Assembly: GCA_964500695.1 (NCBI GenBank)
Contig: CAZCNT010000001.1
Coordinates: forward strand, 1 to 59,515
Reading direction: 5' to 3'
DNA length: 59,515 nucleotides
Source: an uncultured Gammaproteobacteria bacterium
Lineage (GTDB): Bacteria > Patescibacteriota > Microgenomatia > UBA8517
The notes under the pieces are model-generated. The model searched no databases. It was not told where the DNA came from and was given only the letters and a program-made list of their open reading frames with translations. The position numbers were made by a program, and so were the translations under genes. Below, one piece after another: positions 4,574-57,758 of this stretch; within the stretch, counting starts at the first letter, position 1, and the number at the start of each line of letters is the position of its first letter.

Positions 4574-5232
4574 TGATTTTCGTCAATTATAAGACATATG
4601 AAGAAGGGACCGGGCAAAAAGCGGTTGTTCTAACAAAAATTTTGGAAGAAGTTGCTCACGAGACTCAGGTTAAAATCATCCCCGTTGTTCAAATAATAGA
4701 TGCCGAAAGTATTTTGGCCGCAACTACTTTGGAGGTTTGGATTCAACATGTGGACCCGGTGAGTTATGGAGCGCACACCGGCTGGACGCTGCCTGAAGAG
4801 GCCGCAAGGGTCGGAATTTCCGGAGTATTTTTGAATCACTCGGAGCATAAGTTTGACAATTTTGAAAACCTTAGCGTCGCTAACGAAAAAGCGAAGTCTG
4901 CAAATCTAAAAACTTTGATTTTTGCCGGTGACCTGGAAGAACTTAAAAAGGTTTGTGACTTGAATCCAACTTATGTCTCATACGAACCACCTGAATTTAT
5001 CGGTTCGGTAACAACCTCGGTTGCGGAAGCCAAACCAGAAATTGTTTCCCAGGCTGCCGGAATCGCTAGGAGTTTTGGATTGCCTCTTATAGTTGGGGCC
5101 GGAATACATTCGATGGATGATGTCAGAAAAAGTCTGGAGCTCGGAGCGGTTGGAGTTGCCGTGGCAACCGATATCGTCAAGGCGGAAGATCCCAAAAAAG
5201 AACTCTTAGACTTAACGGAGGGGTTCAAATGA
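4573..5232 (+). CDS. tpiA: triosephosphate isomerase, short archaeal-type
   Basis: 219 aa with VNYKTY, NHSEHK, YEPPEFIG and VGAGI motifs. The start overlaps the previous stop (TAATG). Confidence 0.85.
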   Translation: MIFVNYKTYEEGTGQKAVVLTKILEEVAHETQVKIIPVVQIIDAESILAATTLEVWIQHVDPVSYGAHTGWTLPEEAARVGISGVFLNHSEHKFDNFENLSVANEKAKSANLKTLIFAGDLEELKKVCDLNPTYVSYEPPEFIGSVTTSVAEAKPEIVSQAAGIARSFGLPLIVGAGIHSMDDVRKSLELGAVGVAVATDIVKAEDPKKELLDLTEGFK

Positions 5233-9137: not shown

Positions 9138-10244
9138 ATGGTTAAAGTAGGAATTAATGGGTTTGGACGAATCGGCCGGATTGCTTTTAGAATAGGACTT
9201 CTAAAACATTCCGACGAACTTCAATTTGGCGCCATAAACACCTCCGGGAGCATGAATACAGCTGGTTGGGCACATCTGACGAATTATGACACGATGTATA
9301 GAAGATTTGAGTATCAAGTGATGAGTGATGAGTCAAAAAAACCGGAGGAAGCGACAGATGAGGATCCGCAGATAGGAAACTTGATGGTTCCAGAGAGAAA
9401 TATTAAAGTTCCGATTTTGGCACAAAGAGATCCGGCAAAGATCCCTTGGGGAAAATACGGAGTTGATGTGGTAATCGAATCGACAGGTGTTTTTACAGAT
9501 GAAGAAGGAGCCAAGAAACATGCAGTTGGGGGAGCGAAGCGCGTTGTAATTTCGGCACCTGCCAAGGGGGGCAATGTAGAAACGCATATTATTGGAGTAA
9601 ATGAGATTAAAGGAAGTCCTGAGGTGATTTCAAATTCCTCCTGTACGACAAATTCAGTTGCTCCGGTTGCCGCGATAATGTTGGCAAAATTTGGCATTGA
9701 AAAAGCCATGATGACAACTATTCATGGTTATACAGATGACCAAAATTTACAGGATGGAAGCCATAAAGATTTGCGACGTGCAAGAGCAGCCGCTATGAAT
9801 ATTGTTCCAACTTCAACAGGCGCCGCAATTTCGACAACGGAAACAATACCTGAACTTAAAGGAATCTTTGACGGCACGGCTTTAAGGGTTCCTGTTGCCA
9901 CAGGTTCTATAACTGATTTTACTTTTATTGTAAAGAAAGAAGTAACAAAAGAAGACGTAAATAACACCTTTAAAGAAGCAGTAAAAAACCCCATATACAA
10001 GGGAGTACTCGCTATTAATGAGCAAGATATTGTATCTAGTGATATCATAGGAAGAAGTGAGTCTGCAATTGTTGATCTACCTTTAACGCAAGTTGTTGCG
10101 GGAAATATGGTTAAAGTTTTTGCTTGGTATGATAACGAATGGGGGTATGCTAATCGTTTGGTCGAGCAAGTTATCCGAGTGGGCAGGACGTTGGAAAACA
10201 ATAGTGCACCTACTGATCCAATATCATTGTCATTCAAATCCTAA
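9138..10244 (+). CDS. gap: glyceraldehyde-3-phosphate dehydrogenase
   Basis: Contains INGFGRIGR, SCTTNS and WYDNEWGY. Carries an acidic insert near residues 58-80. Confidence 0.92.
   Translation: MVKVGINGFGRIGRIAFRIGLLKHSDELQFGAINTSGSMNTAGWAHLTNYDTMYRRFEYQVMSDESKKPEEATDEDPQIGNLMVPERNIKVPILAQRDPAKIPWGKYGVDVVIESTGVFTDEEGAKKHAVGGAKRVVISAPAKGGNVETHIIGVNEIKGSPEVISNSSCTTNSVAPVAAIMLAKFGIEKAMMTTIHGYTDDQNLQDGSHKDLRRARAAAMNIVPTSTGAAISTTETIPELKGIFDGTALRVPVATGSITDFTFIVKKEVTKEDVNNTFKEAVKNPIYKGVLAINEQDIVSSDIIGRSESAIVDLPLTQVVAGNMVKVFAWYDNEWGYANRLVEQVIRVGRTLENNSAPTDPISLSFKS
9311..9334. repeat. heptamer array GTATCAA GTGATGA GTGATGA GTC translated inside gap
   Basis: Tandem 7-nt period seen directly. It is the reverse complement of the TCAC word family. 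Followed by an A7 run. Confidence 0.6.
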
Positions 10245-10250
10245 ATTCAA

Positions 10251-10331
10251 AACACTAAATTCTAATTAAATTCGAATTTCAAAATTACAATTATAAATTT
10301 TTTTAGAGTTTAGAAATTAGAGTTTAGAGTT
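10251..10331. repeat. cargo-less inverted heptamer arrays (AACACTA AATTCTA ATTAAAT ... TAGAGTT TAGAAAT TAGAGTT TAGAGTT)
   Basis: Lies directly after the gap stop. Homologous in layout and words to 43993..44080. Confidence 0.75.
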
Positions 10332-10340
10332 TTAAATAAT

Positions 10341-15533: not shown

Positions 15534-15555
15534 ATAAGAAAATTGTAACACAATT

Positions 15556-16006
15556 TTAGATAACTAGATGATTGGAGATTAGTTAATTGGGGTAAAATAA
15601 ATAAATGAAAGACTTTAGGGAATTAGAAGTATGGAAAACAGGATTATCTCTCCTAATTGAAATATATAAAATTACGGCGAAATTTCCAAGATCAGAAATT
15701 TACGGATTGGTTAATCAGATTAGAAGATCCGCGAATTCTATTATAGCTAATATTGCCGAAAGTCAGGGAAGATTTAGTTTTGCTGATCGTGTTAGAGTTT
15801 TATATCTAGCCAGGGGTGAAATATTCGAAGTTCGTTCCCACTTGAGCGTAGCACATGAATTAAAGTATATTGATAAGGTAACTTTTGAAAAACTTGATAG
15901 CAGTTATGAGGTATTGGCGAAGCAAACGAGCTCTCTTATTAATTATTTAGAGAAAAGAAAACATGTCTGATCCAATTTCTAATCAACCAGTAATCCAGTT
16001 ATCTAA
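15556..16006. mobile_element. putative IR-bounded cassette 1 carrying a four-helix-bundle gene
   Basis: The arms 15556..15590 and 15972..16006 are reverse complements. The outer 10 nt are perfect and 24/35 match ungapped by hand. Confidence 0.6.
15605..15970 (+). CDS. four-helix-bundle protein (23S rRNA intervening-sequence protein family)
   Basis: Contains LEVWK...FPRSEIYGLVNQIRRSANSIIANIAES, the family signature. Confidence 0.85.
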   Translation: MKDFRELEVWKTGLSLLIEIYKITAKFPRSEIYGLVNQIRRSANSIIANIAESQGRFSFADRVRVLYLARGEIFEVRSHLSVAHELKYIDKVTFEKLDSSYEVLAKQTSSLINYLEKRKHV

Positions 16007-16991
16007 TATTGCCATGCAAGAAACCATACAAAAACTTTTAGCTTCCGGAAAGGGAATTTTGGCTGCCGACGCAAGGATAAAAAGCATGGGTAAGCGTTTG
16101 GAGGCAATTGGGGTAGAACCCACACCAGAAAATGCCTTGAAATTCCGAGGAATTTTATTTGCCACTCCCGGTATTGGTGAGTTCATAAGCGGAGTAATAC
16201 TTAATGACGACACGGTTCGTAATTCATTGGAAAATAAGCCTGTACCTAAATTTCTTGAAGAAAAAGGAATCACTCCAATTATCAAAGTTGACGAAGGAAT
16301 AGAACCGTTTGGAGAAGGAGAGGAGGAGATAACAAAAGGTTTGGAAACCCTCCCCCAAAAGTTAAAAGAGTACTCAGGAATGGGGTTAAAAGCTACAAAA
16401 TGGAGAGGAGTGATTAAAATCTCCGATATTTACCCGACTGAACCTTTCTTGGAGGAAAATTTCGGCAGGATGATTAAATATGCCAAATTGTGCCAGGATA
16501 ACGCTTTTGTTCCGATTGTAGAGCCTGAAATATTACTTGACGGGAATCATACCACCACTCGTTGTGAAGAAGTTGAAACAAAAGTGCTTAAAATTTTGTT
16601 TGAGAAATTAAAGTCGGGAGGAGTGGATCTAACAAAGCTTATTCTTAAAACAAGCATGGTTCTGCCCGGAAAAGATAGCGGGGTTAAAGCTGCGCCATTG
16701 GAGGTAGCCAACGTTACACTTAGGACACTGAAAGCGGCTGTTCCCTCGGAAGTTCCCGGAATAATATTTCTTTCCGGAGGTCAGACCCCCGATCAGGCGA
16801 CAGACAATCTTAACGAAATAAGTAAACTCAAAGGAGATGTTCCGTGGCAAATATCCTTTTCTTATGAAAGGGCGCTGCAGGAGGAGGCAATGACGGAGTG
16901 GGCGGGAAAGGACGAAAATATTGTAAAGGCCCAAGAAGCATTTTACGAAAGAGTCAGGAATGTTTCGGCTGCAAGGGAGGGAAGGCTCTAG
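15963..16991 (+). CDS. fba: fructose-bisphosphate aldolase, class I
   Basis: Contains GKGILAADARIKSMGKR and is 342 aa. The N-terminal roughly 15 codons are the right arm of cassette 1. Confidence 0.85.
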   Translation: MSDPISNQPVIQLSNIAMQETIQKLLASGKGILAADARIKSMGKRLEAIGVEPTPENALKFRGILFATPGIGEFISGVILNDDTVRNSLENKPVPKFLEEKGITPIIKVDEGIEPFGEGEEEITKGLETLPQKLKEYSGMGLKATKWRGVIKISDIYPTEPFLEENFGRMIKYAKLCQDNAFVPIVEPEILLDGNHTTTRCEEVETKVLKILFEKLKSGGVDLTKLILKTSMVLPGKDSGVKAAPLEVANVTLRTLKAAVPSEVPGIIFLSGGQTPDQATDNLNEISKLKGDVPWQISFSYERALQEEAMTEWAGKDENIVKAQEAFYERVRNVSAAREGRL

Positions 16992-37356: not shown

Positions 37357-37805
37357 GGCAAGTAATAAAAGTAAATAAAGTAATGAAGGTAATACAAGTA
37401 TGGAAAGTGGATACAAGAAGCTGATAGTTTGGCAGGAAGCTTTAAAGTTGATAGTTTTGGTTTATAGGTTAACGAAGACCTTCCCAAAATCTGAAGACTA
37501 TGCGCTAAGAGACCAAATAAGGAGAGCGGTGGTCTCGGTGTTAAGCCAGATTGCTGAAGGGTGGCTGCGTAGCTCCAAAAAAGATAAACTTCACTATCTT
37601 GAAATTTCATTAGGTTCTTTAATGGAGGTTGAGTCTCAGGCCGAAGTAGCATTAGCAGTTGGGTACTGGAATTTTAACAATCTGCAAGATTTTGAGGCTC
37701 AACGGGCCAAAGTTTGCTATCTTCTGGTAAGGTATGTTTCTAAGATTAAGTCCGGTTAGCCTTCTTATTACCTGTATTACTTCTATTACGTTTATTACTT
37801 TTTCG
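37356..37805. mobile_element. putative IR-bounded cassette 2 carrying a four-helix-bundle gene
   Basis: The arms 37360..37399 and 37760..37800 are reverse complements (30/40 by hand). They are built of 9-nt GTAAT words. Confidence 0.65.
37400..37759 (+). CDS. four-helix-bundle protein (23S rRNA IVS protein family)
   Basis: Contains LIVWQEALKL...FPKSEDYALRDQIRRAVVSVLSQIAEG. Confidence 0.85.
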   Translation: MESGYKKLIVWQEALKLIVLVYRLTKTFPKSEDYALRDQIRRAVVSVLSQIAEGWLRSSKKDKLHYLEISLGSLMEVESQAEVALAVGYWNFNNLQDFEAQRAKVCYLLVRYVSKIKSG

Positions 37806-37878
37806 TAAGTTTGGTATAATTGCCTCAGTTGGGGACCCTTATAAGCGAAGCTTGAAGCTGGCGCTATAGCAAAATTTT

Positions 37879-37953
37879 GGGCCATTCGTTCATCGGCTAG
37901 GACGGGACTCTTATAAAGTCCAAAGGATAGTTCGACTCTATCATGGCCCACCA
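37879..37953 (+). tRNA. tRNA-Ile, anticodon UAU, CCA encoded
   Basis: Hand fold: GGGCCAT-TC-GTTC-ATCGGCTA-GGAC-G-GGACT-CTTATAA-AGTCC-AAAG-GATAG-TTCGACT-CTATC-ATGGCCC-A-CCA. U8, A14, GG, U33 and the TTCGA T-loop are all present. Confidence 0.85.
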
Positions 37954-37975
37954 AAATTTTGGTATAGCGGAGCGC

Positions 37976-41711: not shown

Positions 41712-41787
41712 GAAATTATTATATTACGTTGGGGTCATCAAACTCGCTTTGCTCGTTCCGACCCCACGAGGTTGGAAGAAAAAGAGC

Positions 41788-41825
41788 AAAAAAAAGGCTC
41801 CCTTTCGGGAGCTCTCTTTTTCTTT
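41788..41825. terminator. bidirectional intrinsic terminator
   Basis: A8, then GCTCCC-TTTC-GGGAGC, then a T-rich run. Nested inside the larger IR 41731..41742 / 41823..41834. Confidence 0.6.
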
Positions 41826-41836
41826 GATGACCTCGG

Positions 41837-41905
41837 TTGCGGGGCCAGAGGTCGCATCTGGCCTGAAAGATTATGAGCCTTTCGTGCACTGTACACTACC
41901 CCGCA
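41837..41905 (-). tRNA. atypical tRNA, anticodon CAU (short D-loop without GG, T-loop UGCGACC)
   Basis: Hand fold: TGCGGGG-TA-GTGT-ACAGT-GCAC-G-AAAGG-CTCATAA-TCTTT-CAGG-CCAGA-TGCGACC-TCTGG-CCCCGCA-A. Total 69 nt. Confidence 0.5.
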
Positions 41906-41964: not shown

Positions 41965-42036
41965 GCCAATGTAGCTCAGCGGTAGAGCGTTCGTTTCATA
42001 AGCGAAAAGTCGAAGGTCCGACTCCTTCCATTGGCA
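41965..42036 (+). tRNA. tRNA with anticodon CAU (elongator Met, or Ile2 if lysidinylated)
   Basis: Hand fold: GCCAATG-TA-GCTC-AGCGGTA-GAGC-G-TTCGT-TTCATAA-GCGAA-AAGTC-GAAGG-TCCGACT-CCTTC-CATTGGC-A. No CCA is encoded. Confidence 0.8.
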
Positions 42037-42049
42037 CAAGTAAACTCTC

Positions 42050-43628: not shown

Positions 43629-43979
43629 ATGGATCCAATAAATTTTGAACAATTCGAAGCTGTTGATATTCGTATCGGCACGGTTAAGAAAGCCGACGTG
43701 CCGGAGTGGAGCCATTGGGTTATCCGAATGGAGGTTGATTTTGGACCGGAAATCGGAACTAAAAAAGCATTTTCCGGAATAATGAAGTTTTTTACTCCCG
43801 AGGATCTTATCGGAAAACAATTTCCATTTGTTGTTAATCTTGAACCCAAGAAAATTGGGCCGGACAAGGAGATGAGCGAGGCAATGATGATTATGTGTGT
43901 GCCAAAAGAAGATGAAGAAACTCCAACCGTTCTTTTCAAGCTCCAAAAGAAAGTTCCAGATGGAACTAAGGTGCGCTAA
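43629..43979 (+). CDS. tRNA-binding OB-fold protein (CsaA/Trbp111-like)
   Basis: Contains FEAVDIRIGTVKKA...FPFVVNLEPKKI. Confidence 0.75.
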   Translation: MDPINFEQFEAVDIRIGTVKKADVPEWSHWVIRMEVDFGPEIGTKKAFSGIMKFFTPEDLIGKQFPFVVNLEPKKIGPDKEMSEAMMIMCVPKEDEETPTVLFKLQKKVPDGTKVR

Positions 43980-43992
43980 CGCACAAATACAA

Positions 43993-44080
43993 AACTCTAA
44001 TTTCTAAATCCTAATTAAATCCAAAATTGGAATTTGTAAATTAAAATTTATTTAGAGTTTAGAATTTAGGATTTAGGGTT
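43993..44080. repeat. cargo-less inverted heptamer arrays (AACTCTA ATTTCTA AATCCTA ATTAAAT ... TAGAGTT TAGAATT TAGGATT TAGGGTT)
   Basis: 7-nt period on both arms. The arms are roughly complementary when G-U pairs are allowed. Same layout as 10251..10331. Confidence 0.75.
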
Positions 44081-44115: not shown

Positions 44116-45996
44116 ATGGACCCAACCAAATTAATTCAAAAAAAACGCCCTCAGGGTAAAAAACAGGTTCAGTTCAAACTAAAAATCAATCTTTGGACTA
44201 TTGCTTTGGGGCTTCTGGTGGTTTTCTTCGTTGTTCCTCTTATCATTACCGGAGTACAGATGGCGGGGAGTAGTAATAATGTTGAAATTTCCCAGCTACT
44301 GAGTGATGTTAAAACCGGCAAGACTGACAAAATATTAATCGAGAGCAATAAATTGATTGTTACGTATAAGGATGGAACAGTTAAGCTTTCCACCAAAGAG
44401 GATGTTGAAGGTTTTAGCCAGCTTTTAAAAGATTCCGGAATAGACCCCTCAACTGTTAAGTTTTCGGTTGTTGACCAATCTTTGACAAAAACTCTGGGGG
44501 AAGTTGCAGGGATTGTCTTACCACTTCTTCTAATGGCAGGATTTTTTTACTATATTTTGCGCGCTCAAACTAAAGGGGCACAGGACATTTTTTCTTTCGG
44601 AAGAAGTAAGGCCAGGCTATTTGCTAAGGGAAAACAGGATACGACTTTTAAAGACGTAGCCGGAGTTGACGAGGCTAAAAAAGAACTTGAAGAACTGGTA
44701 GATTTTCTTAAATACCCCGCAAAATACAGAAAAATGGGAGCACGTACCCCGAAAGGCGCCCTTTTGGTCGGCCCAGCAGGAGTAGGAAAAACTTTATTGG
44801 CGAAAGCGGTAGCAGGGGAAGCCGGAGTTCCGTTTTTTTCAATGGCAGGGAGCGAATTTATGGAAATGCTTGTTGGAGTTGGTGCAAGTAGAGTTCGGGA
44901 TCTTTTTGGCCAGGCAAAAACAGCTGCCCCCTCAATAATTTTTATTGACGAAATTGACGCTATCGGGCGCCAAAGAGGACGCGGAATGATGGGCGGGCAT
45001 GATGAGAGAGAGCAAACCTTGAACCAGATCTTAGTAGAAATGGACGGTTTTACTCCGAATGATAACGTCGTAGTCCTTGCTGCAACAAATAGAGGAGATT
45101 TGCTTGATCCCGCACTTCTCAGACCGGGACGTTTTGACAGACGTGTAATGCTTGATATGCCGGACAAAGAGGGAAGACTTGCGATTCTTCTAATCCATGC
45201 TCGTGGTAAAAGTTTTGGCAAAAAGATCGATTGGGGCAGGGTAGCAGACCGCACAGTTGGATTTTCGGGAGCAGATCTTGAGAATATGCTTAATGAAGCT
45301 GCAATAGGGGCAGCCAGAAATGGTAAAAATGAGATTGGGATGGTTGATATTGAAGAATCAGCCACAAAAGTTAAACTTGGACCGGCAAAAAAGAGACTTC
45401 AAAGCGAGGAAGATAAAAAGATCACAGCCTACCACGAGGCCGGGCATGGAATTGTTACCCATTTTTTAACAAAAACCGATCCGGTTCACCGAATCTCGAT
45501 TGTGGCCCGCGGAATGAGCCTGGGACACACATTGATTCCTCCTGCGGCTGACAGGACCCATGAGACCAAGTCCAGGCTCTTGGAACAGATCACAGCGATG
45601 CTGGGAGGCCGTGCCGCGGAGGAGGTTGTATTTAACGAAATGACGAGTGGAGCCAGTAACGATATTGCTCAGGCGACAAAAATTGCCCGCGCGATGGTAA
45701 TTGAATTTGGAATGAGTGACTTGGGGCCAATTAATCTGGGGGATGATATGGGAATGGGAGACTTTGGGCAGATGGAATGGTTTGAGGGAGCCAAGAATTC
45801 CCCGGCATTTTTGGAAAAAATTGATATTGAAGTCAAAAAGATTTTGGATTCCTGCTACAAGGTAGCTGTTAAACTGGTTAAAGAAAAGAGAAAGCTTTTG
45901 GACAAAGTAAGCGATGCTTTAATAAAAAAAGAAACCTTGGACAGGGACGACTTCGAGGGAATTGTTGGCCACAAGTCGGGCGACGGGAAACTGTAG
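44116..45996 (+). CDS. ftsH: ATP-dependent zinc metalloprotease FtsH
   Basis: Contains GPAGVGKT, the AAA SRH region and HEAGH. Confidence 0.95.
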
Positions 45997-46034
45997 ATTT
46001 GTTTATTTTTGATTGACTTCAACGAAAGTTTCAG

Positions 46035-47000
46035 ATGGGATACAATACACTCATGTCTAAGCTGGTTATTATAGATGGTAATGCAATTCTGCACCGGGCG
46101 TTTCATGCGCTGCCTCCATTAACCACAAAGCGCGGGGAGCCGATAAATGCTGTCTATGGGCTCGTTAGTATGATCCTAAGGGTTATCACGGACCTAAAAC
46201 CAACTCATATAGCCGTAACTTTCGATGAAAGGGCTCCGACTTTTCGTCAAAAAGAACTTCCAACCTATCAAGCCCAACGTCCGCCGATGGCGGAAGATTT
46301 AGGATCGCAGTTTTCAAAAGCCCGTGAATTTTTAGCTGCGGCAAACATTTCCGTTTATTCAAAACCGGGATTTGAGGCGGATGATGTAATTGGCACCATA
46401 GCAACTAGAGCTCAGAGCCTAGAGCCTAGTAAAAAAACTAAGCTCCAAGCTCTAACCCCTAATCTCTCCGAGGTAATTATCGTCACAGGGGACAGGGATC
46501 AGCTTCAACTGGTTGATGATAAAAAGAGAATCAAACTTTACATGCCTGTTGCGGGACTAATCAATGCCAAGCTCTATGATGAAGCGGAAACGATCGAGCG
46601 AATGGGAGTTCCTCCGGTACAGATTACAGATCTGAAGGCTCTAACGGGGGATGCTTCCGATAACTACTTTGGAGTTCCCGGGATTGGGCCAAAAACGGCG
46701 ATAATCCTGCTTTCTAAATATAAATCAGTAAAAGAAATTTATGAACATCTAAACGAGATTCCGAGTAATGTTCGCGAAAAGCTTGGAAAAGGAAAAAAAT
46801 CAGCCGACCAATCATATTTTCTGGCAACAATTGTGCGTGATGTTCCGCTCGATTTAGACTTTGGGGCTATGGGAAAGTGGAATATATCAGGGCCAGAAGT
46901 GATAAAGTTGTTTGAGGAGTTTGGATTTAAGACTTTAACAAAAAGGATTCAGGAGGTAAGTAAAAAAATTGAAGAAGATAAACAAGTCAAAATGTTCTGA
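46035..47000 (+). CDS. 5'-3' exonuclease (Pol I N-terminal/FEN-like)
   Basis: Contains IIDGNAILHRAF, FEADDVIGT, TGDRDQLQL and GVPGIGPKTA. The start is either 46035 or 46053. Confidence 0.88.
   Translation: MGYNTLMSKLVIIDGNAILHRAFHALPPLTTKRGEPINAVYGLVSMILRVITDLKPTHIAVTFDERAPTFRQKELPTYQAQRPPMAEDLGSQFSKAREFLAAANISVYSKPGFEADDVIGTIATRAQSLEPSKKTKLQALTPNLSEVIIVTGDRDQLQLVDDKKRIKLYMPVAGLINAKLYDEAETIERMGVPPVQITDLKALTGDASDNYFGVPGIGPKTAIILLSKYKSVKEIYEHLNEIPSNVREKLGKGKKSADQSYFLATIVRDVPLDLDFGAMGKWNISGPEVIKLFEEFGFKTLTKRIQEVSKKIEEDKQVKMF
46405..46466. repeat. cargo-less inverted heptamer arms with A7 loop, translated in frame inside the exonuclease gene
   Basis: CTAGAGCTCAGAGCCTAGAGCCTAGT-AAAAAAA-CTAAGCTCCAAGCTCTAACCCCTAATCTC. 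Encodes RAQSLEPSKKTKLQALTPNL. Confidence 0.7.
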
Positions 47001-47017
47001 CTTATATAATATATATT

Positions 47018-48133
47018 ATGAAAGTAGCGATAGTACACGATTATTTACTAGATTATGGCGGTGCTGAAGAAGTTTTAGCCGTGTTGCACGAAACCTTTCC
47101 CGAAGCGCCGATCTACTTATCTTTATTAGATAAAAAGGGCTTAGGGAAGTTTGGACAGAAATTTGAAGGTGCAAAAATTATAACTTCATGGTTTAACAGA
47201 CTGCCATTTGCCTCAAAATTAATTTCTCCCCTAAGGTTTCTGATTCCATTGATATGGTCGAGCTTTGATTTTTCTGAATATGATGTTGTTATAACTTCCG
47301 CCAGTTGGGCAGTAACTAAAGGAATTAAAAAGGGGGAAGGAATGATTGAGATCTGTTATCTTCACACACCGCCGAGATATTTGTATGGTTACGAGACTTC
47401 GCGGAAATGGAAAGGGAAGTGGTATGGACTTTTGATTGATATTTACGCAAAAGTTGTTAATAAATTTATGCGGGCATATGATTTTCGTCAGGCGCAAAAA
47501 GTTGATTATTTTATAGCCAATTCCAAAAACGTAGGTAGGCGAATTGAAAAGTTTTATAAGCGAACCGATTATAAAGTTATCTATCCGCCGATAAACATTC
47601 CGCGTATTAAGCCAACTAATGATAAAGATAACTATTTTATAACCGGGGGAAGAATGACTGCTGCCAAAAATTTTGACTTAATTATCAAAACTTGCCAGAA
47701 GGCAAATGTTAAATTAAAGGTGTTTGGAGGAGGAGTAAGCAAGGAGTATTTAAAATCGATTGCACGGGGCGAAACGATATTTATGGGTAAAATAAATGAC
47801 CAGGAAAAAACCAGGTTAATGTTAAAAGCAAAGGCATTTATTTTAGCTCAAATTGATGAAGATTTTGGTATGACGGCACTTGAAGCGGCGGCTTGTGGTT
47901 GTCCGGCAATTGCATTTCGCGGTGGTGGGTATATTGAGTCGGTGGTAGAGGGAAAAACAGGGCTGTTTTTCGACGAACCAACAGTTGAAAGCCTGTCAGA
48001 AGCAGTTAGGAAATTCGAAAGGATGAAATTTGATCCAAAAGATTGCATTGCTCAGGCCAAAAAGTTTTCAAAGGAAAGATTCCAAACAGAAATACGCAGA
48101 TTTGTTGAGGAACGGATTCACACGGATAAATGA
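47018..48133 (+). CDS. GT4-family glycosyltransferase
   Basis: 371 aa with EDFGMTALEAAACGCPAIA. Confidence 0.8.
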   Translation: MKVAIVHDYLLDYGGAEEVLAVLHETFPEAPIYLSLLDKKGLGKFGQKFEGAKIITSWFNRLPFASKLISPLRFLIPLIWSSFDFSEYDVVITSASWAVTKGIKKGEGMIEICYLHTPPRYLYGYETSRKWKGKWYGLLIDIYAKVVNKFMRAYDFRQAQKVDYFIANSKNVGRRIEKFYKRTDYKVIYPPINIPRIKPTNDKDNYFITGGRMTAAKNFDLIIKTCQKANVKLKVFGGGVSKEYLKSIARGETIFMGKINDQEKTRLMLKAKAFILAQIDEDFGMTALEAAACGCPAIAFRGGGYIESVVEGKTGLFFDEPTVESLSEAVRKFERMKFDPKDCIAQAKKFSKERFQTEIRRFVEERIHTDK

Positions 48134-48544
48134 CGGATAAACTTCTCTATGCAGACCTGACTTATAAGGTTCGCGGAGCATTTTTTACAATTTACAACAT
48201 TCTTGGGTTTGGTCATAAAGAGATTATCTATCAAAAAGCGCTGGCTAAGGAATTAGACAAGATTGGAATAAAATATAAACGTGAACCAAGATTGAAAATT
48301 ATTTATGATGGCGATGTACTAGGAACGTACGTGCCCGACTTTTTGATTGAGGATAAAATTATTGTTGAGTTGAAATCGACCCAGTATTTCCCTCCCGACT
48401 TAGGTAAACAAATATTAAATTATCTCAAAGTAACTGGCTATAAACTTGCCTTGGCTGTGAATTTTGGACAATCCAAATTAGATATTAGACGGAGAATTCT
48501 GACCTAATAATCTGTGTGATCTGTTTTACAATCTGTGTTAATCT
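48111..48544. mobile_element. putative IR-bounded cassette carrying a GxxExxY gene
   Basis: Left arm AACGGATTCACACGGATAAATGACGGATAAAC. Right arm TAATAATCTGTGTGATCTGTTTTACAATCTGTGTTAATC. CACGGAT and ATCTGTG words are roughly complementary, about 17/25 by hand. Confidence 0.4.
48130..48507 (+). CDS. GxxExxY protein (PD-(D/E)xK nuclease-fold family)
   Basis: Contains GHKEIIY (GxxExxY) and ...PDFLIEDKIIVELK (D...E.K). 125 aa. Confidence 0.8.
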   Translation: MTDKLLYADLTYKVRGAFFTIYNILGFGHKEIIYQKALAKELDKIGIKYKREPRLKIIYDGDVLGTYVPDFLIEDKIIVELKSTQYFPPDLGKQILNYLKVTGYKLALAVNFGQSKLDIRRRILT

Positions 48545-49364: not shown

Positions 49365-50471
49365 CTACTTTTTAAATGTTGTATACAAATCGAAAAGTTT
49401 TTGAGCGGTATTTTTTGCTGAAAAACTCAAAGCGTATTCGTAGGTTTTTTGCGAAAGACTATAATAGTTTTCTTTGTTTTTTGCGATTTCACTTATCTTT
49501 TCTGCGATTTTTTTAGGATTTCTTTCGCAAATATATCCGGATTGGTTGTCAATTATCAGTTCTTCAAGACCAGAACCTTTTAAAGATATGGTAGGAATTC
49601 CTGAAGCCATAGCTTCAAGGATTGAAATCGGCATAACCTCGCTTAATGATGGTGTAATAAAAAGATGAACAGACTTGTATATTTCCGGAATAAGTTTTCT
49701 GTCAACCACTCCCGTAAAGGTTATATTATTTTCAAGTCCCAATTTAAATGTTTGATCCTGCATTTTTTGAAAAAGAAGACCCGAACCTAAAATCCAAAAT
49801 TTAAAATTGGGGATTAACTTTTTGAGCTCTCTGGCTATCTTAATCAATTCCAGAGGGTTTTTTTCTCTATCCAACCTGCCGGTATAAGCCAGTGTCAGGG
49901 GATGAAAGGGTTTTTCTTGAGGTTTATTAAAAAAGAAATCCTCGACGCCATTATTGACAATAATGGTGTTTTTAATGCCGTGTTTAATCAGTCTTTTTTC
50001 AGTGTTTGACGATGGACAAATAACCTTCTTTGATTTTTTGGAAATTTTGACTAAGTCTCTAATCAATATTTTTGAGGTCGCGTCATAACCTTTGGGAAAG
50101 TAATAATTTAAATACTGCTCATATTGTGTATGGGCAGTAAAGAAAAGAGGTTTGCCCAGCCTATCCGCTATTTGCGAAGCCGCCTGCCCGATTATTAAGG
50201 GATGGTGTGTATGGACAATATCTATTTTTAATTTTTTGATTTTTTTTGTGGGTAAGAAGGGAATTCCCATAGGATAATTTTTAATAAACGGGTTAGGCAG
50301 AGACGGATATCGGATAACATCTTTATATTGGTCTTTATATCCCGGGAACGATGGGGCAAGAATATATACTTTATGGCCAAGTTTCCTCAGAGCATCGGCT
50401 GTTGAGCTAATGTGATAAGTGACCCCGTTTGCTGTGGGAAGATAACTGGCTGTTGTGAATAGGATGTGCAT
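49365..50471 (-). CDS. GT4-family glycosyltransferase
   Basis: 368 aa with SEVMPISILEAMASGIPTI. Confidence 0.8.
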   Translation of the reverse strand: MHILFTTASYLPTANGVTYHISSTADALRKLGHKVYILAPSFPGYKDQYKDVIRYPSLPNPFIKNYPMGIPFLPTKKIKKLKIDIVHTHHPLIIGQAASQIADRLGKPLFFTAHTQYEQYLNYYFPKGYDATSKILIRDLVKISKKSKKVICPSSNTEKRLIKHGIKNTIIVNNGVEDFFFNKPQEKPFHPLTLAYTGRLDREKNPLELIKIARELKKLIPNFKFWILGSGLLFQKMQDQTFKLGLENNITFTGVVDRKLIPEIYKSVHLFITPSLSEVMPISILEAMASGIPTISLKGSGLEELIIDNQSGYICERNPKKIAEKISEIAKNKENYYSLSQKTYEYALSFSAKNTAQKLFDLYTTFKK

Positions 50472-50494
50472 TGGGGTGTATTATACTTCATGAG

Positions 50495-51634
50495 ATGATA
50501 AAAAAACTGAAACTTGTCAATTTTAGAAATTTCAAGGCCAAAACGTTGGATTTTTCCGACAAAGTTACGGTGATTGTCGGACCGAATGCCAGCGGGAAAA
50601 CTAATATTCTCGAATCTCTTTTTTTACTTTCTACCGGGAAAAGTTTTAAGGCCAGGATTGAATCGGAAACGATTCAATATTCGAGCGATATCGCTCGAAT
50701 AATAGGTAATACAAGTAATGAAAGTAGTATAAGTAATACACAATTAGAGGTGGTGCAGACGCGCGGGGAGAATGGTTGGCCGAGAAAAAAGCTTCTGGTT
50801 AACGGAGTTCCAAAGCGCTTAATTGATTTTGCAGGAAACTTTAGAACAGTTCTTTTTGGCCCTTGGGATATGGATATTGTTACAGAGAGCCCGAGCCTAA
50901 GAAGAAGGTTTTTGGATACAGTGCTATCCCAAGTTGATAGGGAATACCGACGTTCCATCCTTTCCTATGAAAAAGGATTAAGGCAAAGAAATCGGGTGCT
51001 TTGGACAATGCGGGAGTATCCGACAGGCTCTTCGGGACGCGACAAACTCCTTTTTTGGAACCAACTTCTCATTAAAAATGGGAATTATATTACAGAAGCC
51101 AGGGAAAATTTTATCGATTTTTGTAATTCTCACCAGTCACAAGTCACTAGTCACTATTCACTGGAGTACGACAGGTCCCTAATATCTGAGGGAAGACTTG
51201 AACAGTACAAAGAAGAGGAAATTGCGGCGGCCACAACACTTGTCGGTCCTCATCGTGATGATTTCATTTTTCTGAAAAGTAATACAAGTAATAAAAGTAA
51301 CACAGGTAATATAGGTAGGGAACTGGCCTCATTCGGCTCACGGGGTGAACAGAGGATGGGGATTTTGTGGCTAAAAATGGCGGAATTGGATTATATTGAG
51401 AAATGCTCTACTCTGGATTCGACTCCCTCGGCAGACCTCAGTTCGCTCACCATTCGTCGGAGCGCGGACTCACGTCCGACGCTTCTTCTCGACGATATAT
51501 TTTCGGAACTGGATCATGAACACAGGGAAGTGGTTATGCAAATCTCAAAAAAACAACAGACGATAATTACCACGGCAGACCCGCATTTTGTCAGCAATTT
51601 GAAAAAAGTGGAGAGAATTGAACTGTTGAGATAG
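50495..51634 (+). CDS. recF: DNA replication and repair protein RecF
   Basis: Contains LKLVNFRNF, GPNASGKTN and LLLDDIFSELD. Start taken at MIKKL. Confidence 0.9.
   Translation: MIKKLKLVNFRNFKAKTLDFSDKVTVIVGPNASGKTNILESLFLLSTGKSFKARIESETIQYSSDIARIIGNTSNESSISNTQLEVVQTRGENGWPRKKLLVNGVPKRLIDFAGNFRTVLFGPWDMDIVTESPSLRRRFLDTVLSQVDREYRRSILSYEKGLRQRNRVLWTMREYPTGSSGRDKLLFWNQLLIKNGNYITEARENFIDFCNSHQSQVTSHYSLEYDRSLISEGRLEQYKEEEIAAATTLVGPHRDDFIFLKSNTSNKSNTGNIGRELASFGSRGEQRMGILWLKMAELDYIEKCSTLDSTPSADLSSLTIRRSADSRPTLLLDDIFSELDHEHREVVMQISKKQQTIITTADPHFVSNLKKVERIELLR
50705..50740. repeat. 9-nt GTAAT word array in recF (GNTSNESSISNT)
   Basis: GTAATACAA GTAATGAAA GTAGTATAA GTAATACAC. Confidence 0.7.
51131..51164. 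repeat. heptamer array CACCAGT CACAAGT CACTAGT CACTATT CACTGG in recF (HQSQVTSHYSL)
   Basis: 7-nt period seen directly. Confidence 0.7.
51277..51316. repeat. 9-nt GTAAT word array in recF (SNTSNKSNTGNIG)
   Basis: Shares the exact 16-mer CAAGTAATAAAAGTAA with the cassette-2 arm (37359..37374). Shares a 19-mer with 40581..40600. Confidence 0.75.
51404..51480. repeat. G+C-rich in-frame insert in recF containing a T-arm-like GGATTCGACTCC and hairpin CGTCGGA...TCCGACG
   Basis: Encodes CSTLDSTPSADLSSLTIRRSADSRP immediately before the conserved LLLDD. GGATTCGACTCC also occurs at 38118..38129. Confidence 0.55.
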
Positions 51635-56836: not shown

Positions 56837-57286
56837 GTTAGCTATTAGCTACTAGCTACTAGAGCTTAGAGCCTAGTTATATTAGAATTTGTTTGTGGCG
56901 ACGATTAAGTGCTTTGAGGATCTTTTGGTTTGGCAAAAAGCTAGAGTGCTAGTTAAGAGAATTTACAGCATAACTTCTTCTTTTCCTTGTGAGGAAAAAT
57001 TTGGCCTAATTGATCAGATTCGTCGTGCAGTCGTATCTATTATGGCAAATGTTGCCGAGGGATTTTCGCGCTATCGGATAGCTGAGACGGTTATGTTTTA
57101 TCGAACAGCAAGAGGGTCCCTATCTGAGGTTAAAAATCATTTGTATATTGCATTAGATTTAGGCTATATTAATAGCACTGAATTTAAAAAACTTGTGGAA
57201 ACAATAGATGAAATTGGGAAAATGCTAAATGGTTTGATAAATTCAACTGAGAATTATAGAAAAACTAAGCTCTAGGCTCTAATGAC
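56837..57286. mobile_element. putative IR-bounded cassette 3 carrying a four-helix-bundle gene
   Basis: Left arm heptamers GTTAGCT ATTAGCT ACTAGCT ACTAGAG CTTAGAG CCTAGTT. Right arm AACTAAGCTCTAGGCTCTAATGAC. The core is 18/21 complementary by hand. Confidence 0.6.
56889..57275 (+). CDS. four-helix-bundle protein (23S rRNA IVS protein family)
   Basis: Contains LLVWQKARVL...FPCEEKFGLIDQIRRAVVSIMANVAEG. The start is non-ATG (TTG 56889 or GTG 56895). Confidence 0.8.
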   Translation: MFVATIKCFEDLLVWQKARVLVKRIYSITSSFPCEEKFGLIDQIRRAVVSIMANVAEGFSRYRIAETVMFYRTARGSLSEVKNHLYIALDLGYINSTEFKKLVETIDEIGKMLNGLINSTENYRKTKL

Positions 57287-57758
57287 TATGAAACTTATAA
57301 TTGGGTTGGGAAATCCCGGAAAGGATTACGAGAACACCCGTCACAATGTCGGTTATATGATAGTGGACAGATTTAGGAAGATTGGTCTTTCGAAAGGTGT
57401 AATGGTGAAAAAATCGGATGTTTTTATGAACAGCTCGGGAGAATTTGTTAAGAAAATTACTGAGCTCTATCCTCTAAGCTCTAATAGCTTATATATTGTT
57501 CACGATGATCTTGATATCCCTCTTGGATCATACAAAATCCAGTTTGGGCGGGGGCCGAAAGACCATAACGGTTTAAAATCGGTTGATGAAGCCTTGGGAA
57601 CGGATCAATATTGGCATGTGAGGGTGGGGATAGAGAATAGAGCTCAGAGCTCAGAGGTTAGTGGATACGACTATGTTCTCCAAAATTTTAGCGATGAAGA
57701 AAGAATAATTTTGAAAATGGTTGTACAAGAGGTATGCCACAAACTTGACAACATATAA
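57282..57758 (+). CDS. pth: peptidyl-tRNA hydrolase
   Basis: Contains GLGNPGKDYENTRHNVG and VHDDLD...HNGLKS. Confidence 0.9.
   Translation: MTMKLIIGLGNPGKDYENTRHNVGYMIVDRFRKIGLSKGVMVKKSDVFMNSSGEFVKKITELYPLSSNSLYIVHDDLDIPLGSYKIQFGRGPKDHNGLKSVDEALGTDQYWHVRVGIENRAQSSEVSGYDYVLQNFSDEERIILKMVVQEVCHKLDNI
57461..57490. repeat. AGCTC-word patch inside pth (TELYPLSSNS)
   Basis: TGAGCTCTATCCTCTAAGCTCTAATAGCTT. Same word family as the cassette-3 arms. Confidence 0.45.
57636..57664. repeat. heptamer patch TAGAGCT CAGAGCT CAGAGGT TAGTGG inside pth (RAQSSEVS)
   Basis: Shares TAGAGCTCAGAGC with 46406..46418. Confidence 0.5.

Follow-up and report, generated by a model that had tools for sequence, protein, structure and literature searches.

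The window analyzed here, a stretch of 59,515 nt (contig CAZCNT010000001.1 of assembly GCA_964500695.1, placed by GTDB in the Patescibacteriota), carries a stand-alone 5'-3' exonuclease gene of the flap-endonuclease type, and within this gene lies a short patch in which two inverted arrays of heptamers flank a run of seven A residues. We favor, with a probability of roughly 55%, the reading that the patch is a passenger, namely a heptamer-array palindrome of the type that forms the stem of 23S rRNA intervening sequences (IVS), sitting in frame and kept open by selection. According to this proposal, the patch would be a fixed, cargo-free copy of the kind of heptamer-array stem that brackets the PF05635 genes of this same genome. 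Tandem units of about 7 nt and their inverted copy would have been written into the one loop of the flap nuclease that accepts extra residues, most likely through replication slippage, template switching, or ectopic copying or conversion from the cassette arms, and not by a transposase. Purifying selection would then need only to keep the frame open, and the product would be a disordered surface loop of 17 residues, tolerated by the enzyme.

The letters at 46405-46466 were re-read in the window and are exactly those quoted in an earlier, sequence-only annotation of this DNA (hereafter, the original prediction), which described a cargo-less hairpin translated inside the exonuclease gene. Tandem Repeats Finder reports a left array at 46405-46429 with period 7, 3.6 copies and the unit CTAGAGC, and by eye the patch parses into four left units (the fourth being CTAGTAA), five A residues and four right units (Table 1). 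Both arms of the hairpin are period-7 arrays in inverted orientation with the A7 run between them, and they are 82% complementary over 17 nt (46406-46422 with 46438-46454); units 1 and 2 of the right arm pair with the left arm, while units 3 and 4 are degenerate. The patch lies inside the exonuclease open reading frame (ORF) and encodes RAQSLEPSKKTKLQALTPNL, flanked by FEADDVIGT and TGDRDQLQL, as had been described.

The patch is a true insertion because the syntenic relatives L163 and L164 (gene order FtsH, exonuclease, GT4, Fpg ...) have no insert at the site, because a 14-residue gap opens precisely at the patch in alignments to the structures of M. smegmatis Pol I (6vde) and Taq polymerase (1taq), and because a short spacer of 14 aa between EADDVI and [ST]GD.D is found in 62 of the 120 closest orthologs, whose source labels, like those of the other relatives, are Patescibacteria, Woesebacteria or Microgenomates. 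The same gap agrees with the excess of about 13-15 aa over E. coli Pol I given in the original prediction. EADDVI and TGD are 17 aa apart in 54 of the 94 fetched loci that allowed the distance to be measured, and 31 aa apart in the window exonuclease. At the empty site, L163 reads GCA ACT AAA GCA AAA GAA GAT GTC (TKAKEDV), and the window has 17 additional codons there; since this placement comes from the protein alignment, its limits (Table 1) may shift by a few bases. The exonuclease matches the 5'-nuclease domains of Pol I in the PDB and probably starts at 46053 (MSKLV...), as its orthologs do.

An AlphaFold2 model of the enzyme (mean predicted local distance difference test score, pLDDT, 90.3) places the inserted stretch in the loop between the helix at residues 109-122 and the strand at 140-144. 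This hydrophilic, lysine-bearing loop is the region of lowest model confidence in the protein, with scores of 59 and 67 for the two 10-residue blocks covering residues 121-140 and values below 50 at residues 126-128. The inserted peptide is identical in the four full-length other members of the 90% cluster, which are 90-92% identical overall; the array is therefore fixed and not phase-variable. Phase variation was rejected on this ground and also because a change of a single unit would frameshift an essential gene. As a separate observation, the proteins of the P0001 cluster are nearly identical to the window protein in the N-terminal half, insert included, and differ from it at many positions in the C-terminal half, a pattern that suggests recombination mosaics within the exonuclease gene.

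The origin of the patch is indicated by its resemblance to a second locus. The original prediction had regarded it as cassette 3, one of the stem-bounded PF05635 cassettes of this genome, without the cargo, and both arms do match the ends of that cassette. On the left, 46399-46422 (TAGCAACTAGAGCTCAGAGCCTAG) matches 56853-56876 with 2 mismatches in 24 positions; on the right, 46433-46455 (AAAAACTAAGCTCCAAGCTCTAA, which includes the A-run) matches 57260-57282 with 2 in 23, and it matches the right end of the corresponding cassette of L168 with only 1 in 23. The two matches to cassette 3 share strand and order, and the number expected from 100 shuffles is 0. The arms in the exonuclease gene are homologous to the arms of cassette 3. 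Chance or an artefact was rejected, as the protein is present on 14 contigs drawn from several sources, its insert family recurs in relatives, and no arm matches are expected at random.

A perfect (CTAGAGC)n array translates as LEPRA*S in all three frames, and the exonuclease reads RAQSLEPS, which points to an origin at the DNA level; the peptide is the cyclic translation of CTAGAGC with its stop repaired. In the 18-nt core of the left arm, 17 positions agree with cassette 3, and the single mismatch turns GCT TAG into GCT CAG. In the right arm, 22 of 23 positions agree with the 98%-identical strain L168, and the single mismatch turns CTC TAA GCT into CTC CAA GCT; at that codon, cassette 3 of the window has TAG, the stop of its own PF05635 ORF. 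In the arm cores, every difference from the cassette arms thus falls at a position where the cassette letters would create a stop codon in the exonuclease frame. This confinement is direct evidence for a DNA-level origin, with selection acting only to hold the frame open.

The site itself is a hot spot for short tandem repeats. Among the 120 closest orthologs, 58 carry between 1 and 43 extra residues at this one position, belonging to at least 8 unrelated peptide families, while insertions of at least 2 aa elsewhere in the exonuclease occur in only 1 of the 120. Where the DNA was at hand, most inserts are short tandem arrays, mostly of heptamers, and some have a single arm: L085 carries CCAAAAT x5, L081 CCGAAAT x4 and L083 CTCGTAA x3, and further heptamer arrays occupy the site in L007, L093, L117 and L152. 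Others have two arms. The inserts of L162 and L165 consist of (ACTACAG)n, then AAGAAAAAA or AATAAAAAA, then (CCGTAGN)n; L166 has GATAC-type arms with A8, L167 has AGAGT/CTCT-type arms with A7, and the inserts of L001 and L161 belong to the AGAGC family, as in the window. A run of A6-A8 or AAGAAAAAA stands directly 5' of the right arm in L161, L162, L165, L166 and L167, and L001 has a shorter, interrupted loop there (AAGAAAAGT). In a single-gene neighbor-joining tree, which is weakly resolved, the insert families are interspersed with insert-free sisters, and the family of the window also appears in P0002, P0013 and P0109, far apart on the tree. This distribution suggests repeated gain, loss or replacement of inserts at the site.

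Heptamer periodicity extends beyond the exonuclease gene. Self-matches of 5-mers at offset 7 number 172 in the window vs 63 +/- 10 in shuffles. No other offset from 2 to 21 shows so large an excess, the codon-driven offsets 3, 6 and 9 included. Period 7 accounts for 14 of the 42 tandem-repeat rows, with unit families that include TAGAG-, TCAC- and GTAATA-type words. The flanks of loci with an exonuclease insert region of at least 20 aa have a higher period-7 ratio (median 1.40, n=22) than those with at most 17 aa (0.90, n=66; Mann-Whitney p = 0.003). Arrays in frame are also present in recF, in an ATP-dependent ligase gene ((TTCACAG)x5), in gap and in a cobalamin adenosyltransferase gene. RecF (gene at 50471-51634) has 387 aa in the window vs 336 aa in L163, with lineage-specific insertions of (AAGTAATA)n at 50708-50737 and 51284-51316 and of a 19-aa patch at 51401-57; the gene also holds (TCACNAG)x5 at 51130-51162. 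L162 carries a different insert, of 27 aa, at the first of these recF sites, which makes that site another hot spot. Heptamer words can also fill variable segments whose length changes hardly or not at all, as seen in pth, in recF (SHQSQVTSHYS) and, nearly so, in the ligase gene. The pth peptide NRAQSSEVSG shares its words and its frame with RAQSLEPS of the exonuclease. The pth segment at 57460-57489 pairs both with the cassette arm at 56854-56876 (23 nt, 87%) and with 57631-57654 (24 nt, 79%), so that long-range stems could form, one nested in another, over the PF05635 gene and the 5' portion of pth (gene at 57282-57758). The original prediction pointed to a similar arrangement in gap, the glyceraldehyde-3-phosphate dehydrogenase gene: the A7 at 9335-9341 following (AGTGATG)x2.4 is indeed present, within an array at 9317-9341 that is in frame (peptide QVMSDESKK), and no inverted partner array was seen. 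It also suggested looking for further units of arm, A-run and arm; in the window, hairpins centered on runs of A6 or longer are not enriched (30% vs 25% background). Intergenic hairpins with CTCTAAA/TTTAGAG-type heptamer arms were also observed at 10232-10332 (between gap and the next gene) and at 43976-44076 (upstream of ftsH). YTCNAAA units, related to that type, occur in the exonuclease inserts of L093 and L152, which suggests that the heptamer vocabulary is shared across the clade.

The heptamer arrays have a particular association with PF05635 genes. The window has three of these genes (15605-15970, 37400-37759 and 56889-57275), and all five that we examined (these three and those of L092 and L017) lie between inverted arrays of 7-9-nt units. 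The unit is particular to each cassette: TAGATAA-type at 15551-16011, AAGTAATAA at 37360-37800, TAGCTAC/TAGAGCY at 56839-57282, CATGTAG in L092, where the cassette directly follows the exonuclease gene, and ACGTGAT in L017. The cargo of cassette 3 is a four-helix bundle, bAvd-like, and the right arm contains its stop codon (AAG CTC TAG).

Table 1. Positions of the patch, its host gene and the related repeats in the window.
Feature	Position	Strand	Remarks
Stand-alone 5'-3' exonuclease, flap-endonuclease type, 321 aa	46035..47000	+	PF02739 and PF01367 in orthologs; from the ORF list
Left arm of the patch	46405..46430	+	CTAGAGC TCAGAGC CTAGAGC CTAGT, read as (T)RAQSLEPS; unit 2 has CAG in place of TAG
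A7 loop	46431..46437	+	Lysine codons, KK
Right arm of the patch	46438..46466	+	CTAAGCT CCAAGCT CTAACCC CTAATCT C, read as TKLQALTPNL
Net insertion, 51 nt / 17 codons relative to insert-free orthologs	46416..46466	+	Pairwise alignment with syntenic L163
Cassette 3, left arm	56839..56876	+	(TAGCTAY)x3, then TAGAGCT TAGAGCC TAG; word family of the exonuclease left arm
Cassette 3, cargo, PF05635 '23S rRNA intervening sequence protein'	56889..57275	+	Pfam E = 2.4e-39
Cassette 3, right arm	57260..57282	+	A5 run ahead: AAAAACTAAGCTCTAGGCTCTAA
GCTCTA-type words in pth	57460..57489	+	Peptide ELYPLSSNS; variable segment, length unchanged relative to L163
AGAGCTC-type words in pth	57631..57660	+	Peptide NRAQSSEVSG; length unchanged relative to L163

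Several observations weigh against the passenger reading. Copied unaltered, the cassette arms would have introduced two in-frame stops into an essential gene, so that either the copy was already open when it arrived or the similarity is the product of later conversion filtered by selection. The conversion idea is consistent with the fact that the orthologous arms of L001 and L161 are more diverged from the window arms than the window arms are from their own cassette. These same L001 and L161 arms have drifted in a partly complementary manner (AGAGG with CCTCT in L001), a possible sign of selection on structure. That only one site is used suggests target specificity beyond mere tolerance. The period-7 comparison between the flanks of loci, given above, is confounded by phylogeny. 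The cassette-3 stems may themselves be functional, given that their arm cores are conserved alongside PF05635 proteins of only 64% identity: both cores (TTAGAGCTTAGAG and CTAAGCTCTAG) are intact in L170, whose cassette has 81% and 70% identity to that of the window in the arms and 73% in the ORF DNA. Given this conservation, the exonuclease hairpin might have a function as RNA.

An RNA function is also the most probable of the alternatives, although we consider it unlikely. According to it, the hairpin would serve in the mRNA as an entry site for RNase III (or another double-strand RNase) or as a translation brake, in either case tuning the expression of the flap nuclease in the manner of the stems by which IVS are excised from 23S rRNA, and its structure would be what is maintained. 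Folded as RNA, the 81-nt hairpin reaches -19.4 kcal/mol (z -2.3; 4 of 200 shuffles equally good) and its 69-nt core -16.7 kcal/mol (z -2.9; 2 of 300), so the arm pairing of the original prediction does exceed that of shuffled controls, with a stability that is only moderate. Folded as DNA, the z is only -1.3. The 70-nt windows of the whole stretch average -11.3 +/- 4.3 kcal/mol, and the exonuclease hairpin is outside the 40 most stable; its stem is interrupted, with 7 + 4 + 3 bp. The pairing is above chance but modest, and the repeat architecture is the stronger signal. Two-armed, self-complementary inserts with different arm sequences recur at the site, with z from -1.3 to -5.5, and the conservation of the cassette-3 arm cores between genomes would fit an RNA role, as would the Coxiella burnetii IVS, which RNase III cuts at its heptamer stem, at the first heptamer repeat (PMC4990558). 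Against these points, the right arms have decayed in L001 and L161, about half of the orthologs have no insert, several inserts are one-armed arrays with z >= 0, and cleavage within an essential ORF would do no more than inactivate the transcript. The window showed no RNase III signature motif, a result of little weight given that the window is only part of the genome. Rfam places no RNA family on the hairpin (its sole match in the window is a tRNA), and a pattern search of 45900-47100 yielded no internal terminator or promoter. In the reading that we favor, the mRNA hairpin would have no required function.

The original prediction preferred a different origin, in which the patch derives from the stem-bounded cassettes and is of the type of the miniature inverted-repeat transposable elements (MITEs). 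As a true element of this type, the patch would be non-autonomous, mobilized in trans by a protein that an element or the host encodes, and inserted by transposition. We regard this as rather improbable. The patch does have the inverted arms and the small size of such an element and is homologous at both ends to a cassette with cargo in its own genome, and the occurrence of the window insert family in distant branches of the tree could be taken as movement. The claim of transposition did not stand up, though. The only flanking direct repeat, a 9-mer (GATGTAATT / GAGGTAATT), codes for the native residues DVI and EVI, and target-site duplication was rejected because an equivalent flanking repeat is already present at the empty site of L163. 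The cargo of the cassettes is PF05635 and not a transposase, and neither a partner transposase nor a REP-associated tyrosine transposase (RAYT) was seen within the 59.5-kb window. Cassette 3 itself is syntenic and vertically inherited, not hopping, since its gene occupies the same place, between a MamF-like gene and pth, in L168 and L169 (98%), in the P0130 contig (75%) and in L170-L172 (64%), the percentages being the identity of the PF05635 protein to that of the window's cassette 3; it is absent from L163. Arm sequences differ from cassette to cassette. Besides the exonuclease patch, the 59.5 kb of the genome covered here contain one homologous arm pair (that of cassette 3), the two adjacent word patches in pth and a weak match with 2 mismatches at 5134, and 21 kb of the P0002 genome have no AGAGC-word site beyond its own exonuclease insert. 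A transposed element is further opposed by heptamer words that replace sequence without changing its length, and by the unrelated repeats, many of them one-armed, found at the same codon position in other genomes.

It is tempting to speculate about a dedicated, non-transposase process in this clade that writes arrays of units of about 7 nt together with their inverted copies, perhaps linked to the PF05635/bAvd-like proteins, with conversion homogenizing the dispersed arrays. IVS-type stems, hitherto known from 23S rRNA, would then also colonize permissive loops of essential proteins such as the flap nuclease, RecF and Pth, and would be translated there. We hold this extension, too, to be rather improbable.

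Less probable again is a purely local microsatellite, in which slippage from the native A-rich quasi-repeat GCAACTAAA/GCAAAAGAA was followed by fold-back and the likeness to the cassette is convergence. In its favor, native CTAAAGC and CTAGAGC differ by a single base, arrays of many kinds occur at this hot spot, and the loops there are A-rich like the native lysine codons; against it stand the ordered matches to the two ends of the cassette, 24 nt and 23 nt long and A-run included, which 100 shuffles never produced. Least probable is an adaptive protein loop, whose 17 residues would be selected for contact with a partner or with DNA and whose palindromy at the DNA level would be incidental: the identity of the peptide among cluster members and its hydrophilic, lysine-bearing nature speak for it, but the peptide is a frame-cycled heptamer translation, relatives carry unrelated peptides of 1-43 aa or, in half of the cases, none, and model confidence is low there. 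In the passenger reading, the insert would be neutral for the enzyme. Programmed translational bypass is known from T4 gene 60 and the mitochondrial 'byps'. For the patch, such a bypass was rejected as superfluous, the 51-nt insert being open and in frame in all relatives.

The passenger palindrome that we favor has relatives among several described systems without being identical to any of them. ORF-less IVS stem-loops exist. Like the IVS of 23S rRNA, the patch has arms homologous to a stem that brackets a PF05635 ORF, and heptamers are also present in the Coxiella IVS stem, where two or three tandem GACAGAT units, varying in number among strains, adjoin the S23p ORF (PMC4990558). Unlike these IVS, which lie in helices of the 23S rRNA and are excised by RNase III, the patch is in the coding region of an mRNA, keeps the frame and is presumably translated; the PF05635 cassettes of the window are likewise intergenic and not in rRNA, and Rfam finds no rRNA in the window.

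To our knowledge, the Rickettsia palindromic elements have no tandem-heptamer substructure. PMC3184786 describes them as in-frame palindromic repeats in genes, housekeeping genes included (Ogata et al. 2000), of about 105-146 bp and with family consensus sequences. The patch resembles them in being an in-frame palindrome that is translated into an extra surface segment, selfish or neutral, at a site tolerated by the fold. It differs from them in its size (51-62 nt), in its 7-nt units, in a sequence that varies by site and genome, and in its host, a Patescibacteria lineage and not Rickettsia; the published size sets the consensus families of Rickettsia apart.

The short tandemly repeated repetitive sequences (STRR) of cyanobacteria are dispersed arrays of tandem heptanucleotides, of several unit families per genome and of unknown origin, which are tolerated in variable parts of functional genes such as that of RNase P RNA; canonical units are CCCCAGT, TTGGTCA and CAACAGT. 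The window similarly has dispersed tandem 7-nt arrays of several unit families, but the host is a member of the Patescibacteria, the units are others, inverted pairs are frequent, and the arrays are linked to PF05635 and common inside ORFs. The literature on STRR and small dispersed repeats includes Mazel 1990, Vioque 1997 and Elhai 2008.

With MITEs and with the repetitive extragenic palindromes (REP) and their hairpin-forming REPIN arrangements, the patch shares the nature of a short, hairpin-forming dispersed repeat; unlike them, it has no target-site duplication and no terminal inverted repeats conserved across copies, and it is translated within a gene. Its arms would qualify as MITE-type terminal inverted repeats (17 nt, 82%) but are tandem-heptamer arrays and not a conserved sequence. 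Finally, phase-variable heptanucleotide tracts are described in Haemophilus influenzae (PMC8262952), and they too are tandem heptamers within or beside genes. Such tracts are perfect, and their copy number varies and switches genes, whereas the array of the patch is degenerate and invariant in its cluster, and the loss or gain of one unit would be a frameshift. A literature search returned no description of heptamer arrays or in-frame palindromes in Patescibacteria, an absence that is weak evidence.

Some neighboring features deserve mention in their own right. ARAGORN predicts a tRNA-Ile (anticodon TAT) at 37879-37953, which is enclosed by a 19-nt, 95% complementary stem (37862-37880 / 37951-37969); the region 37855-37975 folds at -48.9 kcal/mol, and Rfam does not report this tRNA at its gathering threshold. 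The most stable local hairpin of the window (41766-41835, -34.5 kcal/mol) adjoins two divergent tRNA-Met genes at 41835-41905 (-) and 41965-42037 (+), of which Rfam reports only the second. Downstream of the exonuclease, a small gene of the PDDEXK_3 nuclease family (48130-48507) lies between the GT4 gene and fpg, its start overlapping the GT4 stop, and is followed by short repeats of the ATCTGTG type; in L163, L165 and L167, no such gene is annotated ahead of fpg.

Taken at the strength given above, the passenger reading means that tandem-heptamer hairpins of the IVS-stem kind shape protein sequences in Woesebacteria-like Patescibacteria. About half of the flap-nuclease orthologs carry an insert in one loop, and in the window the inserted peptide is a frame-cycled repeat with its stops repaired. 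The locus would offer a comparative handle on the origin and spread of both IVS elements and STRR-type heptanucleotide repeats. It also calls for caution in annotation, structure work and phylogeny, as DNA-level passengers can show up in core proteins as differences in length and unusual low-complexity loops. Moreover, an arm match that is broken only at would-be stops would constitute a natural experiment on how selection acts on a selfish repeat within an essential gene.

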